Source: an uncultured Oscillospiraceae bacterium | Lineage (GTDB): Bacteria; Bacillota; Clostridia; Oscillospirales; Oscillospiraceae | Length of the DNA: 26,690 nucleotides | NCBI GenBank assembly: GCA_944385815.1 | Contig: CALWYQ010000066.1 | Span: 1-26,690 of the forward strand | Direction of reading: 5' to 3' | Part shown: positions 880 through 19,464 of the stretch, piece by piece | Layout: each line of letters opens with the position of its first letter | How positions within the stretch are numbered: position 1 is the stretch's first letter | The notes under the pieces: generated by a model | Databases searched by the model: none | What the model saw: only the letters and a program-made list of their open reading frames with translations | What the model was told of the DNA's origin: nothing | Program-made: the position numbers and the translations under genes

Positions 880-1085
880 AGAAAGGACAGGCCCAAAGCC
901 GGGCATACGCCCGGTGAGCCTGAGTCTCTGTCCTTTTGCCTGAGAGATTAGCGGCCCGCGCCGCCTTGCACCTTCGGCCCTCATTGCTGAGCTTCTCCAG
1001 AGTTCATCCACGCACAGTCTCCGTCCCGCAGGACGCCTGAGAGTTTCACTCCTTCGGCAAGCTGAGCTTTTTCCTGAGCGCTTCA
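880..1085 (-). promoter_or_regulatory. Tandem (two-aptamer) glycine riboswitch in the 5' leader of the AGCS symporter gene.
   Basis: The minus-strand RNA reads ...GCGCUCAGGAAAAAGCUCAGCUUGCCGAAGGAGUGAAACUCUCAGGCGUCCUGCGGGACGGAGA...ACUCUGGAGAAGCUCAGCAAUGAGGGCCGAAGGUGCAAGGCGGCGCGGGCCGCUAAUCUCUCAGGCAAAAGGACAGAG. It contains the glycine-aptamer hallmarks twice: CUCUGGAGA, (A/G)CCGAAGG(N)GCAA, and CUCUCAGGCAAAAGGACAG. AAAGGACAG (936..928) is complementary to CUGUCCUUU (890..882) in the platform, which gives an alternative pairing. Confidence 0.85.
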
Positions 1086-15253: not shown

Positions 15254-15667
15254 TCAGCTCTGCGCGAACATGAGACAGACCTTTGCAAAATCCGGGCAGG
15301 TCTCCGGCTTTACAAAGCGCCTCGCGCGGCGGAGATATTTGAATGCGTTGCGCCCGCGGACATTAAGCTGCTCCACGGAGAGGCCGAAGGCCATTATCGC
15401 GCCGGATATAAAGCCGCCGGCGGCGAATTCGCCGCCGAAGTAAAGCTCAAGCGCCGCGGCGCCGAGGCAGAGCGCGGCCCGGCAGGCAAATTCAATGCCG
15501 AAGCTCAGGCCTATGCGCGCGCGTTTTATGCCCCCGGGGAAAAGCCTGCCGAGCCGCCTTGTCAGCGGCACGTAGCAGAAGAGGACCAGCAGCGCGCCGA
15601 AGCCCACGAAAAAATACACGACGGCCCCGACAAGGAACATCGCCGCCATCAACAGCAGATTAAGCAC
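15254..15667 (-). CDS. Hypothetical small integral membrane protein.
   Basis: 137 aa with about four hydrophobic segments (for example LLLMAAMFLVGAVVYFFVGFGALLVLFCYV and GGFISGAIMAFGL). GTG start at 15667 with AGGGGG 6 nt upstream. No family recognised. Confidence 0.6.
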   Translation of the reverse strand: MLNLLLMAAMFLVGAVVYFFVGFGALLVLFCYVPLTRRLGRLFPGGIKRARIGLSFGIEFACRAALCLGAAALELYFGGEFAAGGFISGAIMAFGLSVEQLNVRGRNAFKYLRRARRFVKPETCPDFAKVCLMFAQS

Positions 15668-15952
15668 AGTACGCCCCCTAAAATCCGGCGGCTTCCGCGC
15701 AGAATGCGCGTCGCCCCGCCGCGGCGATAGATACAGCTGCCTCGTTGCCGTCCATGTGCTTCAGCTGAAGATGCAATTACATATTCACCTGTTTTGTAAC
15801 GGTTTTAGCCGATATCCGCCCGGATGCTGCAATAATCAGCGGATACCGGCGCATTATTTTACCTTTCGTGCCGGGCGCGCGAGAGCAGGTCCGGCAGATC
15901 GCATGCACAGTATATCACAAAATGCTCCATTTGTCTATGGAAATAGACGTTA

Positions 15953-15981
15953 TTGGCTCTCTTTTCCCGTAAAATTATATA
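15953..15981 (+). promoter_or_regulatory. Candidate promoter for the XRE regulator gene.
   Basis: TTGGCT (15953-58), 17-nt spacer, TATATA (15976-81). The inverted repeat GTCTAT-ggaa-ATAGAC (15933-15948) lies immediately upstream. Confidence 0.4.
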
Positions 15982-16007
15982 AATTTGGGAAAAATGAGGT
16001 GATTACA

Positions 16008-16271
16008 ATGAAACTTGACAGACGGGCCGCCGGCCGGGTCATACGCAGCCTGAGGCGCTCGCGGAAGCTGTCCCAGGATGTGCTCAGCGGCCTTGCGGGG
16101 ATTGCGCGCACGCATCTTTCGATGATAGAGACCGGCTCGAAGCAGCCGAACTTTGAGACGCTCTGGAAGCTTTCGGGGGCTCTCGATATCCGGCCCAGCG
16201 AATTGGTGGGGCTCATCGAGCTCGAGTGCGAAAAGGCGGAGGCTGAGGAGCGCGGCTACGAAGGCGCTTGA
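16008..16271 (+). CDS. XRE-family helix-turn-helix transcriptional regulator.
   Basis: 87 aa: MKLDRRAAGRVIRSLRRSRKLSQDVLSGLAGIARTHLSMIETGSKQPNFETLWKLSGALDIRPSELV..., which fits the HTH_3 pattern. GAGGTG (15996-16001) lies 6 nt upstream of the ATG at 16008. The upstream part of track ORF 15756.. is non-coding. Confidence 0.85.
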   Translation: MKLDRRAAGRVIRSLRRSRKLSQDVLSGLAGIARTHLSMIETGSKQPNFETLWKLSGALDIRPSELVGLIELECEKAEAEERGYEGA

Positions 16272-16296
16272 ATTATGCCCTGCCGGGTGCTACAAT
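16268..16296 (+). promoter_or_regulatory. Promoter for the GNAT gene, overlapping the XRE stop codon.
   Basis: TTGAAT (16268-73), 17-nt spacer containing the TG extension (16288-89), then TACAAT (16291-96). Confidence 0.6.
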
Positions 16297-16327
16297 AGGG
16301 CATATTCGCAAAAAAGGACGTGTTTTT

Positions 16328-16846
16328 ATGATTCGTTTGGCCTCGGCCGCAGACATTGACGCCATCTGCGCCCTCTATGGCGAGATATTCGCGCACGAGC
16401 GGGAGACGGAGTGCTTCACGCAATGGGTCGAGGGGCTCTACCCCACGCGCGAGACCGCCGAAAGGGGCGTTTCCGCCGGGACCATGTACGTATTGGAGGA
16501 GGGCGGGCGCGCCGCCGCGAGCATGATCCTGAACTCCTTCCAGCCGGAGGAGTATTACGAGATACCCTGGCTCTACCCGGCCGGGGACAGCGAGGTGCTG
16601 GTGATACACACGCTCTGCGTCTCTCCCGCGGCGTCCGGGCGCGGCCTCGGCACGCGCATGGCCGACTTTGCCGCCGGCTTTGCCCACGGGCGCGGCATGG
16701 GCGTAATACGCCTCGACACAAACGTAAAGAACACCCCGGCGCAGCGCCTTTACCTCAAAAACGGCTGGCGCCTCGCCGGCAGGCACCACAGCCTGCACGA
16801 GGGTGTGCTCGACACAGAGCTTGTCTACCTCGAGAGACGTCTCTGA
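16328..16846 (+). CDS. GNAT-family N-acetyltransferase.
   Basis: 172 aa from the ATG at 16328 (MIRLASAADIDAICALY...). Acetyl-CoA motif A LCVSPAASGRGLGTRM. C-terminal AQRLYLKNGWRLAG. AAGGA lies 9 nt upstream. Confidence 0.88.
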   Translation: MIRLASAADIDAICALYGEIFAHERETECFTQWVEGLYPTRETAERGVSAGTMYVLEEGGRAAASMILNSFQPEEYYEIPWLYPAGDSEVLVIHTLCVSPAASGRGLGTRMADFAAGFAHGRGMGVIRLDTNVKNTPAQRLYLKNGWRLAGRHHSLHEGVLDTELVYLERRL

Positions 16847-16853
16847 GGCCAAA

Positions 16854-16900
16854 AACCGCCCGGGGCTGTCTGTCAGCGCGGCCCCGGGCGGTTGCTTTTA
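16854..16900 (+). terminator. Intrinsic terminator after the GNAT gene.
   Basis: 13-bp stem AACCGCCCGGGGC (16854-66) / GCCCCGGGCGGTT (16881-93), 14-nt loop, then GCTTTTA. Confidence 0.75.
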
Positions 16901-16962
16901 ATGAGCGGAGGCAACCTGGTCTCCCATTTGGCCTCCCAATTAACAAGTCTATCACAGTACGG

Positions 16963-17006
16963 CCCGGCGCGCAAGGGGTAATCCGCGTCCGGGTTAAATT
17001 TTTGTT
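16963..17006 (+). terminator. Second terminator-like hairpin upstream of the orphan RNA promoter.
   Basis: CCCGG-CGCG (16963-71) pairs with CGCG-t-CCGGG (16984-93), with one bulge and a 12-nt loop. It is followed by TTAAATTTTTGTT. Confidence 0.5.
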
Positions 17007-17042
17007 AAGTCCGACAAAACTGTGAAACAAGTACATTCTGCC

Positions 17043-17071
17043 TTGACAATTGCGGCGCGTAGTGGTATATT
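17043..17071 (+). promoter_or_regulatory. Near-consensus SigA promoter with extended -10, not followed by any protein gene.
   Basis: TTGACA (17043-48), 17-nt spacer, TGg extension (17063-65), TATATT (17066-71). The upstream flank is AT-rich. The predicted TSS is near 17078. Confidence 0.75.
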
Positions 17072-17077
17072 ATGACC

Positions 17078-17686
17078 AGAAGGTAAGAGCAAAGGCGAAA
17101 GCAAAGAGCCAACAAGGCGGGAATGCGAGGGATAGAGCAAATACCCGGCAAACCCATTATCCCGAGCAAAAGCCCTGAGCCCGTATCCGGGAGGCAAAGC
17201 GCCGGCTTTATAAGGCAAAGCTTTAAAGGTTTTATATTTATAATATAAAACCAGAAAAGCAAAGCCAAAGCCTCATCCCATAAAAAGCCTCATAACCGGA
17301 TAAGGAAGCAAGCCTGAACCGGAAGCCAAAAGCAGTCATTCTAAAAGCGAAGGCGAATTAGAAAGACGCAACAAATGCTTAAAGCAGAAAGTTGAAACAG
17401 GTTTTGGCTTTCAGAGCTCAAAGCAAAAGCTGAACGCCTTACTAAATCGGACGACCATACAGAGCTGCGAACGAACAAAAGTTACCGCTGATGCATAATT
17501 TGGCCTTAGTAAAGGAAAAAGAGAAGAATAACAGAGCAGAATAAGACGGGGCTTATGAATTCGTAAAACGCGCTGTGCATGGAAGGACCGAAATCCGCAG
17601 AAAGAGAGGTTAAAATGATGTTAGATATCAAGAATCACCGCATCTGACCCCTGTTTGAGTTGAGACAGGGGTCAGGTGTTTTTTAT
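17078..17686 (+). ncRNA. Candidate noncoding RNA of about 600 nt, unclassified. It is A-rich and T-poor with a 5' domain of AAAGC repeats.
   Basis: It is bounded by the promoter at 17043-17071 and the terminator at 17644-17686. The track shows no + strand ORF of 60 aa or more here, and my reading finds only tiny ORFs. The composition shifts sharply from the GC-rich background: in 17281-17340 I count 25 A, 13 G, 14 C and 8 T. There are 13 exact AAAGC copies between 17098 and 17430. The ends are estimates. Confidence 0.55.
17644..17686 (+). terminator. Intrinsic terminator of the orphan RNA unit.
   Basis: 11-bp stem CTGACCCCTGT (17644-54) / ACAGGGGTCAG (17665-75), 10-nt loop, then GTGTTTTTTAT. 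Confidence 0.85.
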
Positions 17687-17694
17687 GCGCGTTT

Positions 17695-17722
17695 CCGCCC
17701 GGAGCCGGGCGGTTATTTTTTT
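17695..17722 (+). terminator. Second, tandem + strand terminator.
   Basis: CCGCCCG (17695-701) / CGGGCGG (17706-12) with a 4-nt loop, followed by TTATTTTTTT (17713-22). On the minus strand the stem is followed by AAACGCGC, so it is oriented for + strand transcripts. Confidence 0.7.
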
Positions 17723-17731
17723 GCCCGGGCC

Positions 17732-18850
17732 TCAGCGCTTGCGCCTGAAGCGGCCGATCACCGGCAGCTCGCGGCGCGCGCTTTCAACATAGGACCTGGC
17801 GAGGAGCTGCATGCCCTCGGTAAACACGGCGCGCTCGGCCTCGTCGCCGAGCAGGTCCCGCGCGGCTGTGAGGGCGCTGCGGACGCGGCGCTCGTTGAGA
17901 TCGGTGAGCGTGCGCGCGCCGGTGCTCTCAAGCGCGTCAAAAACGGCGTTTATAAGCTTCTGCCGCTGCTGGAGGTCAAGCCTCTCCGCCCAGCCCCGGA
18001 TAGCCTCGGCATAGACGCGGCTGCGCAGGGCGAAGGCGTGGCGGCGGACGAAGCGCCGGCCGAGCACCTGCCAGGTGAAGCCGTTGTGCGCCGCCGTGCC
18101 GGTCTCGCAGCTCTCAACTATCTCATAGGGCGAGTCCACGTTCAGCAGCACGCCGACCATCGAGTGCTGCGGCACCAGCATGCGTATCCTGTCCTTTATG
18201 CGGATAAAGCCGGGCTCGCCGGCCACGGAGCGCTTGAAGCCCGGGCCGTCGAAGTTATAGACCTCGGATATCCGCGCCTGAAGCTCCTCAGGTACGTTCA
18301 TCGCGGCAAAAACGGCGAGGTTCCCGCCCTTGGAGTGCCCGCCGACGCGCAGCTGCCCGTCAAATTCCCAGCCGGCGCGGAAGAGGTAGGCCGCGGCGTC
18401 CAGCTGCGCGGGGACGGCGTCGAGGGCGCTCATGTTGAAGTCCTCGCGCCAGGCGGCGAGGGTGTCGTCCGTGCCGCGGAAGGCTATGTAGCGCGTGCCG
18501 TCCGGCAGCTGCGCCGTCAGGGCGCAGAACTGCTCGGCCGCGTCGTCGTCCACGCGGTTGACGTAGCCGCTTATCCTGAGCCCGGCGAAGCGGCGGGAGG
18601 CAAGGAGCTTTTTGGCCATCGTCACAGTGCCGGCCGGCAGCAGGACGCCGAGCCGCCTGTCCTCCTCGCCGTAGTGCTTGAAATATTCGCCCAGCGCGTC
18701 CGCAAAGCCCATCTCGCCCCCGGGCGGGATGATGCCCGTGAAGTCGAGGCTGGTCAGCTTGCAGATGATAAGGCCGTCCACCTCGTTGAAGCCGTCGAGG
18801 GAGAGCGGGACGTCGCCGCGCCAGTCGAGGTAGTCTATCGCGTTCGCCAT
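17732..18850 (-). CDS. DUF2974 / Mbeg1-like alpha/beta-hydrolase-fold protein.
   Basis: 372 aa. The N-terminus MANAIDYLDWRGDVPLSLDGFNEVDGLIICKLT is typical of this family as I remember it. The nucleophile elbow is GHSKGGNLA (GxSxG). The start overlaps the upstream stop as TAATG. Confidence 0.75.
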   Translation of the reverse strand: MANAIDYLDWRGDVPLSLDGFNEVDGLIICKLTSLDFTGIIPPGGEMGFADALGEYFKHYGEEDRRLGVLLPAGTVTMAKKLLASRRFAGLRISGYVNRVDDDAAEQFCALTAQLPDGTRYIAFRGTDDTLAAWREDFNMSALDAVPAQLDAAAYLFRAGWEFDGQLRVGGHSKGGNLAVFAAMNVPEELQARISEVYNFDGPGFKRSVAGEPGFIRIKDRIRMLVPQHSMVGVLLNVDSPYEIVESCETGTAAHNGFTWQVLGRRFVRRHAFALRSRVYAEAIRGWAERLDLQQRQKLINAVFDALESTGARTLTDLNERRVRSALTAARDLLGDEAERAVFTEGMQLLARSYVESARRELPVIGRFRRKR

Positions 18851-19464
18851 TACAGGCGCGTCAGCGCGTGGCGCATGTAGGGGTTGTGCTCGCGCTCGGT
18901 GGAAAGGCGCGTCGCGAGGTCGTGGCCGGGGTAGACCTCGTAGTCGCCCTCGAGCTGGCCGAGGCGCTTGAGGCTCAAAAGCTCTGCCATCATGTCTCCG
19001 CCGGGGAAATCCGTGCGGCCGCAGGAGCCGCGGAAGAGCGTGTCGCCAGTGAAGAGCGCGTCGCCGCAGAGCAGCGTGACGCCGCCGGGCGTGTGCCCCG
19101 GGGTCTCGAGGACGCGGAACTCCAGCGCGCCTACGCGCACCGTGTCGCCCTCTGAGTAGTATACGGCGCCCTCCGGGGCCCTGAAGGGCCGGGCGCCGGG
19201 CAGGGCCTCGCCGGCCTCCTCCTTTTTGTTGAGGTAGAGCGGCGCGCCGGTCTCCTCAAGCACGGCGTCAAGGGCGCCGATGTGGTCAAAATGCGCGTGC
19301 GTGAGCATGACGGCGCGGCATTTGAGGCGGTTGTCCTCAATGTAGCCGAGGATCGTGTTGGCCTCGGCGCCCGGGTCGATGACCGCGCACTCGAGCGTGC
19401 CCTCGTCGGTCACGACATAGCAGTTGGTCTCTAAATGCCCTACGGGAAGGGTTTTGATAAGCAT
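18850..19464 (-). CDS. MBL-fold metallo-hydrolase (glyoxalase II-like).
   Basis: 204 aa. HxHxDH motif LTHAHFDHIGA, later GHTPGG and a C-terminal GH. A GGAGGA SD lies 7 nt upstream of the ATG at 19464. Confidence 0.88.
   Translation of the reverse strand: MLIKTLPVGHLETNCYVVTDEGTLECAVIDPGAEANTILGYIEDNRLKCRAVMLTHAHFDHIGALDAVLEETGAPLYLNKKEEAGEALPGARPFRAPEGAVYYSEGDTVRVGALEFRVLETPGHTPGGVTLLCGDALFTGDTLFRGSCGRTDFPGGDMMAELLSLKRLGQLEGDYEVYPGHDLATRLSTEREHNPYMRHALTRL

Follow-up and report, generated by a model that had tools for sequence, protein, structure and literature searches.

A conserved RNA gene of gut Oscillospiraceae with a putative mini-ORF that would end inside its terminator hairpin

The subject of this work is a gap at positions 16847-17731 of a contig from an uncultured Oscillospiraceae bacterium (GenBank assembly GCA_944385815.1, contig CALWYQ010000066.1), analysed over a stretch of 26,690 nucleotides (nt), the whole of which is referred to below as the window. 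The gap is flanked upstream by a gene for a GNAT acetyltransferase (+ strand, ending at 16846) and downstream by a gene for an Mbeg1-like/DUF2974 protein (- strand, ending at 17732), and the public gene calls of five near-identical contigs annotate no gene in it. Comparison with related genomes, together with prediction of promoters, terminators and RNA folds, leads us to propose that positions 17043-17722 may constitute a single gene whose product, an RNA of ~609 nt (17078-17686, with a start site at ~17078 that is predicted from promoter spacing alone), is stable and highly structured and would possess a ribosome-coupled hairpin at its 3' end. To this reading as a whole we assign a probability of roughly 45%. 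Of one part of it we are highly confident, namely that the segment is a real, conserved RNA gene and belongs to a family widespread in gut Oscillospiraceae and related Clostridia.

The unit begins with a promoter that ranks best among the six promoter-like sites found in 15500-19000 (shuffled sequences yield 1.3), in agreement with an earlier reading made from the sequence alone (hereafter the sequence-only reading), and it ends with the two + strand terminators which that reading had also recognized. The two insulators postulated upstream fared differently. The one at 16854-16900 is the terminator of the GNAT gene, and in the relatives the GNAT stop codon is likewise trailed by an equivalent hairpin. 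The other, at 16963-17006, is a weak hairpin of 7 base pairs (bp) that overlaps a conserved promoter-upstream box, and because the relatives keep this box without any hairpin, it is probably not a terminator. Between the promoter and the terminators lies the A-rich body of ~565 nt, in which, as had been stated, there is no long open reading frame (ORF): stop codons are abundant in all three + frames, and a Pfam comparison of the seven ORFs of the gap gave no match with E below 0.1. A makes up 39.5% of the body (17077-17640), compared to 18% of the whole window; the earlier estimate of ~40% A, based on a 60-nt sample, is thus accurate, whereas T amounts to 16.5% and is slightly higher than the ~13% of that sample. 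The coordinates of the individual features are collected in Table 1.

Table 1. Predicted elements of the RNA gene and of its upstream border, in the order of their positions in the window
Feature	Positions	Strand	Description
Terminator of the GNAT gene	16854-16900	+	16-bp stem (16854-16893), then GCTTTTAATG; insulates the unit from upstream transcription
Conserved promoter-upstream region	16997-17037	+	Box 1, AAATTTTTGTTAAG, at ~16997-17009; box 2, TGTGAAACAAGTACATT, at 17021-17037
Sigma-70-type promoter	17043-17071	+	TTGACA, 17 nt, TG-n-TATATT; 11/12 consensus positions
Helix P1, 5' strand	17082-17097	+	GGTAAG (17082-17087) and AAGGCG (17092-17097); pairs with 17435-17443
A-rich expansion of the P1 apical loop	17098-17434	+	337 nt; 13 AAAGC; internal duplications
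Helix P1, 3' strand	17435-17443	+	CGCCTT (17435-17440) overlapping CTTACT (17438-17443)
Helix P2 (tentative), 5' strand	17446-17450	+	Conserved ATCGG after the P1 3' strand
Central island	17484-17495	+	Conserved ACCGCTGATGCA; tentative P2 3' strand and P3 5' strand
Hairpin Px	17504-17515	+	CCTT (17504-17507), loop AGTA, AAGG (17512-17515)
Conserved segment before the ribosome-binding site	17588 on	+	CCGAAATCCGCAG; loop and 3' strand of a tentative hairpin
Purine tract and Shine-Dalgarno sequence	17599-17609	+	AGAAAGAGAGG; invariant columns of alignment A1, in every family member; predicted mostly unpaired
Putative mini-ORF	17618-17647	+	ATG TTA GAT ATC AAG AAT CAC CGC ATC TGA (MLDIKNHRI, then stop)
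Terminator 1	17640-17686	+	14- to 17-bp GC-rich stem (17640-17679) and T6; 5' arm holds codons 8-9 and the stop
Terminator 2	17695-17722	+	7-bp GC stem (17695-17712) and T-run; + strand specific, no T-run on the - strand

The source of the window belongs to Candidatus Scatomorpha, a genus of the Oscillospiraceae that is known from metagenome-assembled genomes of the chicken gut, and the orthologous gaps of the relatives were located through the DUF2974 protein, i.e. independently of the RNA sequence. Seven Scatomorpha species share the convergent arrangement of the GNAT gene, the gap and the DUF2974 gene, with the neighbour protein 67-82% identical. Along with the flanking genes these relatives keep the promoter, the 5' end and the 3' end of the unit, as the sequence-only reading implied they should. 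According to blastn, only two blocks are conserved, one (16992-17107) comprising the upstream region, the promoter and the first ~30 nt of the RNA, and the other (17581-17726) its 3' end; the middle of the gap does not align, and the whole gap is 431 nt long in L001, the shortest, and 1141 nt in L015, the longest.

The most conserved element of the unit is an invariant Shine-Dalgarno sequence followed by a frame of 8 or 9 codons, so that the description of the RNA as ORF-free has to be abandoned. All eight Scatomorpha sequences read CCGAAAUC-nnn-AGAAAGAGAGGUYAAA-nn-G AUG UUA GAU AYC AAG AAU, followed by three variable codons and UGA, and the module is matched exactly in each of the seven species; family-wide it reads AGAAAGAGAGGUUAAA-nn-G AUG UUA GAU AYC AAG AAY. 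An extra in-frame ATG at 17615 of the window is not conserved. In the seven species located through the neighbour gene, codons 2, 3, 5 and 6 are unchanged and codon 4 is either ATC or ACC (Ile/Thr). Because codons 2-6 are nearly invariant without synonymous change, and residues 7-9 of the mini-ORF are not conserved, the constraint acts on the RNA sequence of the region of initiation and early elongation. Among the 29 distinct variants of the module, 24 have a mini-ORF of 9 codons and 5 have one of 8, a difference of exactly 3 nt; the stop codon is UGA in 23 and UAA in 6, and in 29/29 it stands in frame and within the 5' arm of terminator 1. The spacing between the Shine-Dalgarno sequence and the AUG is constant, while the stem positions on either side of the stop vary and co-vary. 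The fixed spacing, the change in length by 3 nt and the restriction of the stop to in-frame UGA or UAA argue for real translation, and in our judgment the mini-ORF is probably translated. Two other ideas about this region were rejected: a hairpin within the AUG region pairs differently in the AUC and ACC variants and is not conserved, and a mimic of the 790 loop of 16S rRNA, with which we presume UUAGAUACC to be shared, finds no consistent stem in the flanks, the Scatomorpha sequences moreover having AUC instead of ACC.

The upper part of the stem of terminator 1 is well supported by compensatory exchanges, namely of U-A to C-G at two pairs in 4/9 sequences. In several members (L009, L015/L087, L040, L063, L049, L086 and L082) its loop has been enlarged by inserts to ~29-195 nt (~74-195 nt in several of the species), with the stem and the T-run retained; the inserts are A-rich with internal repeats, those of L009 and L015 are alike, and all six that were tested have a negative fold z. 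A second, fail-safe terminator is found in most family members whose downstream sequence was read. On the - strand of 17640-17732, neither hairpin has a T-run on the DUF2974 gene's own strand, so that transcription of that gene may continue, as antisense RNA, through to terminator 1 and the mini-ORF.

The same module would also suit a purely non-coding structured small RNA, in which the stretch around the Shine-Dalgarno sequence and the AUG is not productively translated and instead offers a conserved single-stranded site, or a seed, to which a protein, another RNA or the 30S subunit would bind, in the manner of Spot 42. The invariance of codons 2, 3, 5 and 6 in species whose neighbour protein is only 67-82% identical, the lack of conservation in residues 7-9 of the "peptide", and the predicted unpaired state of the purine tract and of the AU-rich stretch all agree with such a role. 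However, a mere binding site does not account for a spacing between the Shine-Dalgarno sequence and the AUG that is both ideal and fixed, for a stop that is always in frame and always UGA or UAA among variable neighbours, or for a frame whose length shifts by exactly 3 nt. We therefore regard the purely non-coding explanation as rather unlikely, although of the alternatives to the ribosome-coupled RNA it is the one that survives best.

Beyond Scatomorpha, an exact-pattern scan detected the module in 78 metagenome contigs and in none of the viral contigs. Together with the Scatomorpha loci these contigs fall into 31 sequence clusters with 29 distinct 3' modules, their GC content ranges from 42 to 66%, and their names refer mostly to human gut, but also to hare, chicken and other animals. 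The search of 118 sequences with an nhmmer profile of the 3' module retrieved one additional copy only, so that divergent members in which synonymous variation could be tested are lacking. Every member is an orphan unit of one and the same layout, with a consensus-like extended -10 promoter, the 5' helix P1, a leader that is A-rich and 50 to 600 nt long with a variable but folded middle, the module, and a very stable hairpin with a T-run; the region from the start site to the ribosome-binding site (RBS) contains 30-47% A family-wide. In the shortest members only ~50 nt separate the start site from the RBS, and the RNA measures ~130 nt to the end of terminator 1. In L010 alone, the RNA unit is separated from the DUF2974 gene by an inserted extra ORF of 207 residues on the opposite strand, which lengthens the distance between the flanking genes to ~1600 nt. 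In the Scatomorpha species L007 (7224-7296, + strand) and L014 (7195-7268, - strand), a tRNA gene directly follows the DUF2974 gene, and the RNA is not found at the locus.

Two further groups of members differ from the Scatomorpha loci in their surroundings. The units of class B (32 contigs including L041, with near-identical units), which are the shortest of the family, follow a gene for a CHAP/NlpC-P60 hydrolase of a conjugative element on which genes for a VirB4/TraG-like ATPase and for a C5 DNA methylase are also found; their upstream flank is constant and their downstream flank varies between contigs, and therefore the unit lies near the edge of the element. Tandem copies occur in L053 (two) and L085 (three), ~600 nt apart and each with its own promoter and terminators. 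The 5' regions of these tandem units are of two types, and the middle of one L085 unit contains four GTACTGGNAGAC repeats. The L085 contig with the three tandem copies also carries a ZMP/ZTP riboswitch (RF01750, 23-103 on the - strand, 66.2 bits). Within the first ~30 nt of class B and class C units (e.g. L074, L077, L058 and L078) we observed the motif AGAAAGGRUGAKWCCA, followed by AUG, one to three codons and a stop (as in AUG UAC UAA, AUG UAC AGG UAA and AUG AAC AGC UAA). It looks like a second, smaller minigene with a Shine-Dalgarno-like tract, and it is not found in Scatomorpha, where the equivalent bases form helix P1.

The promoter is conserved as well, the arrangement of -35 box, 17-bp spacer and extended -10 box being common to all 13 clade A lineages. 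The two boxes upstream of it were recognized by eye in 8/8 Scatomorpha sequences, where they take the forms ATTTTCGTYAA and TTGTGAAAYAAGYACATT and stand just upstream of the -35 box, and the conserved block detected by blastn begins at ~16992. In class C (L053 and L085), a near-perfect inverted repeat, GCACTAA-n-TTAGTGC, was likewise seen by eye upstream of each copy. The boxes may represent an UP element or the binding site of a regulator; since they look like regulator sites, the RNA gene would be a controlled one. Matches to a CodY or cre site in these boxes were too weak to be claimed.

A promoter of this kind, followed by strong translation signals, recalls the minigene-type toxins or ribosome/tRNA traps, such as CreT or the lambda bar minigenes, and the RNA could be conceived as a toxin of this sort, which would hold ribosomes or a particular tRNA and would normally be repressed by a regulator bound at its promoter. 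For CreT to be active, a strong Shine-Dalgarno sequence and an efficient start codon must be combined with a mini-ORF and a stable stem-loop (PMC8501985), and the present RNA has each of these. That copies reside on a conjugative element and others form tandem arrays, and that inverted repeats stand just upstream of the -35 box, would be in keeping with a toxin, and the UUA codon is expected to be rare at 62% GC. Yet in hosts of 42-49% GC this codon should not be rare, the mini-ORF has no two consecutive rare codons, and neither the syntenic chromosomal position throughout a genus nor the large structured domain upstream finds an explanation. There is also no creA-like repeat, CRISPR-like array or cas gene in the window, and the neighbour proteins gave no cas or defence match beyond a generic HTH domain. 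A minigene toxin is thus an improbable account of the family.

It is less probable still that the peptide of 8-9 residues (fMet-Leu-Asp-Thr/Ile-Lys-Asn-x-x-x) is itself the product, encoded by a tiny gene with a long structured 5' leader. The strength of the translation signals, the conserved N-terminal hexapeptide and the shortest members, which contain little beyond the ORF and the terminators, could be quoted in favour of this possibility. Nonetheless, conservation is seen at the level of nucleotides and not of the peptide, the C-terminal residues change in concert with the terminator stem, and no export or modification signal was seen; moreover, we know of no functional free peptide of 8-9 residues outside the cis-acting leader peptides.

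The ribosome-coupled RNA that we favour is predicted to be strongly folded upstream of the module. The transcript opens with (A)GRTRAG and AAGGCG, whose partners in helix P1 are CGCCTT/CTTAYC. In 13 distinct lineages the cognate strands of P1 have a mean duplex energy of -9.3 kcal/mol, compared to -4.9 kcal/mol with shuffled 3' strands, a test that is valid for P1 only, the results for P2, P3 and P5 having been discarded on account of wrong anchor sites in several sequences. The pairs are of the G-C, A-U and G-U types, and the helix is present in the minimum-energy fold of the window RNA. The apparent double changes in P1 reflect mostly a one-column register shift in L009, and its support comes mainly from exchanges among G-C, A-U and G-U and from the duplex energies.

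The apical loop of P1 measures 4 nt in L001 and 8-9 nt in L086, L049 and L096 (e.g. GAAAGCCAA), and it reaches 147 nt in L009, 225 nt in L004, 337 nt in the window, 375 nt in L005 and 386 nt in L010, all the long loops being 31-40% A. The comparison of the RNA with the 600-nt class of OLE and ROOL, made in the sequence-only reading, therefore loses its basis: no part of the RNA is less conserved than the A-rich body, an insertion of 4-386 nt that differs from lineage to lineage, and the shortest RNAs are of ~130 nt. In the window, the segment 17084-17099 from the 5' strand of P1 is duplicated at 17342-17357 with 88% identity, and AAAGCCTCAT is present twice; at least part of the expansion therefore originated through local duplication, the ancestral loop being of the GAAAGCCAA type. 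An AU-rich palindrome lies within it at 17220-17260. AAAGC is strongly over-represented in the window, where it occurs 13 times instead of an expected 1.0, and in L005 (11 times; 1.1 expected), weakly in L010, and not at all in L004 or L009; we therefore rejected it as a universal functional motif and consider it a feature of a lineage rather than a signature of the family.

The 609-nt RNA has a predicted folding energy of -184.8 kcal/mol, compared to -139.6 ± 4.0 kcal/mol for dinucleotide shuffles (z = -11.2), and the expansion 17098-17434 on its own has a z of -5.65, values which contradict the view of the RNA as mostly single-stranded. In other species, six P1 expansions and six terminator-loop inserts gave negative z in 12/12 cases (-1.5 to -4.7). 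In the minimum-energy fold 59% of the bases are paired; 68% of the A residues are unpaired, compared to 23-31% of C, G and U, and in most of the AAAGC motifs the A residues are unpaired and the GC is paired. In view of the strong fold z and of the unpaired A residues between helices, the A-richness is best modelled as A-rich internal loops between short helices, such as many structured RNAs have, and not as a floppy single strand. The A-rich body is, very probably, a structured expansion specific to individual lineages.

Additional helices were proposed from alignment A1, which comprises nine cores with the expansions trimmed. In the proposed helices 90.9% of the cells are paired; sliding the partners by 1-3 columns lowers this value to 34-47%, the covariation score from 0.278 to 0.075-0.094, and the number of pairs that change on both sides from 13 to 3-7. 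The G-U pairs are compatible with the + strand only. Hairpin Px changes on both sides, from CCUU:AAGG in the window to GCUUU:AAAGC, GGCCC:GGGCC (L010) and ACUUU:AAAGU (L040). P2 (70-89% paired in A1) and P3 (82% paired) are tentative, as is the hairpin preceding the RBS. RNAalifold applied to the 3' domain yielded no convincing consensus. The 5-bp pairing of UGACC (17073-17077) with GGUUA (17608-17612), which the same program suggested, was rejected, its first strand preceding the predicted start site; we observed that it is kept in L009 by changes on both strands (GAUC, GGUCA) and that other lineages are also complementary.

The model of the sequence-only reading, i.e. a mostly single-stranded, A-rich sponge of ~600 nt whose purine-rich body would bind RNA or a protein, is hard to reconcile with folding predicted to be far stronger than in shuffled sequence, and with a body that cannot be aligned between species and is missing from the short members. 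A content of 30-47% A between the start site and the RBS throughout the family speaks for it, as do the enrichment of AAAGC in the window and L005 and the repeats that other lineages have of their own, such as the four GTACTGGNAGAC copies in L085. AAAGC, however, is not enriched in L004 and L009, and only weakly in L010. A sponge of the CsrA type (CsrB/RsmZ) was rejected separately: the 564-nt body contains 10 GGA motifs, and ~13 are expected from its base composition. A sponge is accordingly quite improbable as the function of the family.

The genomic context argues against a cis-regulatory role, because across the lineages the downstream neighbours are mostly convergent and functionally unrelated, and no neighbour gene is conserved outside the Scatomorpha genus. 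This bears on the possibility that the unit is a leader-peptide transcription attenuator of a downstream gene, similar to pyrBI, erm, tet(M) or toiL, or the relic of one. An ORF of 8 or 9 codons with an RBS does end inside a terminator stem, and regulatory upstream ORFs (uORFs) of such a size exist; toiL, for example, is reported to be a regulatory uORF of 8 codons (PMC12121999). But in the window no co-oriented gene comes next, the gene after the second terminator being convergent, and no anti-terminator pairing was noticed in the minimum-energy folds or by eye, although no dedicated search for one was made, so that attenuation is very improbable. A decayed protein-coding gene can practically be dismissed: the gap is long for the genome, but it is filled with stops in three + frames, its ORFs lack Pfam matches, its middle does not align between species, and its length varies from 431 to 1141 nt while the promoter, the 5' helix and the terminator module are conserved.

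The claim that this self-contained promoter-to-terminator unit lies outside the described families was borne out by the searches that we made. Rfam 15 (cmscan) gave no relevant match, either in the window at gathering thresholds or in 16800-17780 at E up to 10, and all that it reported inside the unit were hits to eukaryotic RNA families, below threshold, and hits that covered no more than a hairpin. Rfam 15 found nothing in the relatives either, namely in 15 Scatomorpha loci (gathering thresholds) and in 12 class B/C and four short-core loci (E up to 1). ARAGORN detected no tRNA or tmRNA gene in the window, and Rfam had no tmRNA match. Searches by blastn of a class B unit against plasmids and of the 3' module of the window against phages gave no match. 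In open-access full text, neither the peptide strings, nor the motif strings, nor descriptive keywords were matched, although an earlier description elsewhere is possible. Thus, we could not find this RNA family described.

Two observations concern the rest of the window. Upstream of the RNA gene (15998-16846, + strand), an 87-residue protein of the XRE type with a helix-turn-helix (HTH) precedes the 172-residue GNAT acetyltransferase, and this order is kept across the genus beside the RNA gene. We take the pair to be reminiscent of the GNAT toxin/antitoxin modules that acetylate aminoacyl-tRNA; the sole match of PADLOC to it was a generic HTH domain. At 918-1010 (- strand) lies a glycine riboswitch aptamer (RF00504, 56.2 bits, E = 2.7e-09), the only Rfam family that exceeds its gathering score in the window.

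How could the ribosome-coupled RNA work? As a working mechanism, tentative and in our estimate somewhat unlikely to be right as it stands, we suggest melting of the hairpin coupled to translation. The mini-ORF would be translated by ribosomes; because its stop codon lies inside the stem, a ribosome could get to it only by unwinding the 5' arm of terminator 1. The loading of ribosomes and the hairpin of terminator 1 would exclude each other, the protection of the 3' end, the conformation or the longevity of the RNA would be coupled to translation capacity, and it would be the folded body, in which A-rich loops are left unpaired, that acts on other molecules. It is tempting to regard the RNA as a free-standing "translation-capacity sensor" or ribosome trap, with arms expandable by hundreds of nt and forming an undescribed family, but this we hold to be doubtful.

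Several points weigh against the ribosome-coupled RNA and should be kept in mind. Since the pattern by which all the metagenome members were detected holds the module constant, its invariance beyond the seven syntenic Scatomorpha species is partly built in. The nucleotide invariance of codons 2-6 is atypical of coding constraint and fits a site for binding RNA or protein. As there are only two ORF lengths, the argument from the frame rests on about three independent changes of length. The helices tested on alignment A1 had been derived from the same sequences, and P2, P3 and the hairpin before the RBS were drawn by eye; applied to the trimmed cores, RNAalifold gave only P1b, Px, terminator 1 and the rejected long-range pairing of the 5' end. 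Promoter use, the 3' ends and translation are all predicted, and a translation-dependent fate of the RNA is a proposal.

If the family is real and undescribed, a common and probably abundant RNA will be added to the non-coding repertoire of gut Oscillospiraceae and related Clostridia, which is poorly charted; at least 31 sequence clusters carry it, in samples from the guts of humans, chicken, hare and other animals. Its architecture is unusual for an orphan structured RNA, the highest conservation being that of a translation start and of a mini-ORF with its stop buried in the terminator stem, and it may offer a natural system in which to study how the loading of ribosomes on a non-coding RNA controls the 3' end of that RNA. 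The origins of RNA "expansion segments" are visible in it as well, the loop of one and the same helix having 4 nt in one species and 386 in another. For annotation, it illustrates that A-rich, seemingly unstructured gaps can mislead, and that a conserved function may occupy a few dozen terminal nucleotides. To a specialist, the invariant module, the geometry of the stop within the stem and the expandable arms should be of note.

Comparison with known systems helps to define the family. The large bacterial RNAs OLE, ROOL, GOLLD, raiA and HEARO resemble it in the length of ~600 nt (in this species), in strong predicted structure, in A-rich unpaired loops and in being encoded by orphan genes, but their covariance models do not match it, most of its length is non-conserved insertion, and its shortest homologues have ~130 nt. 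The tag frame of tmRNA has no Shine-Dalgarno sequence or AUG of its own, whereas the frame in the window RNA has both. Spot 42 of E. coli and other enterobacteria contains an RBS and a short ORF that ends at the terminator, is untranslated, and base-pairs through seed regions; the RBS and the short ORF are common to it and the new family, but sequence and structure are dissimilar.

With the CreT RNA the family shares a strong promoter, a strong Shine-Dalgarno sequence, an AUG, a mini-ORF and a stable stem-loop directly downstream. CreT, however, has two consecutive rare codons, by which it sequesters one tRNA, and it adjoins the CRISPR-like antitoxin creA and cas genes (PMC8501985); in the family no rare codons follow each other and none of the codons stands twice in a row, and what it has beyond the common plan is a structured domain upstream, 50 to 600 nt in length, and a stop codon located within an intrinsic terminator.

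The pyrBI, erm, cat and tet(M) leaders, and toiL, are leader-peptide attenuators or regulatory uORFs. Such leaders and the RNA described here have in common a short ORF (8-9 codons) that cannot physically be translated while the downstream hairpin is formed, but here no regulated gene follows: the unit is closed by two terminators, after which come mostly convergent, unrelated genes. Dual-function small RNAs such as RNAIII/hld, SgrS/SgrT and SR1/SR1P, finally, contain ORFs of 26-43 residues with a conserved peptide sequence. Like them, the family combines a structured regulatory RNA with a small ORF, the translation of which is here predicted; unlike theirs, this ORF has 8-9 codons, is conserved as nucleotides, and is located at the extreme 3' end of the RNA.

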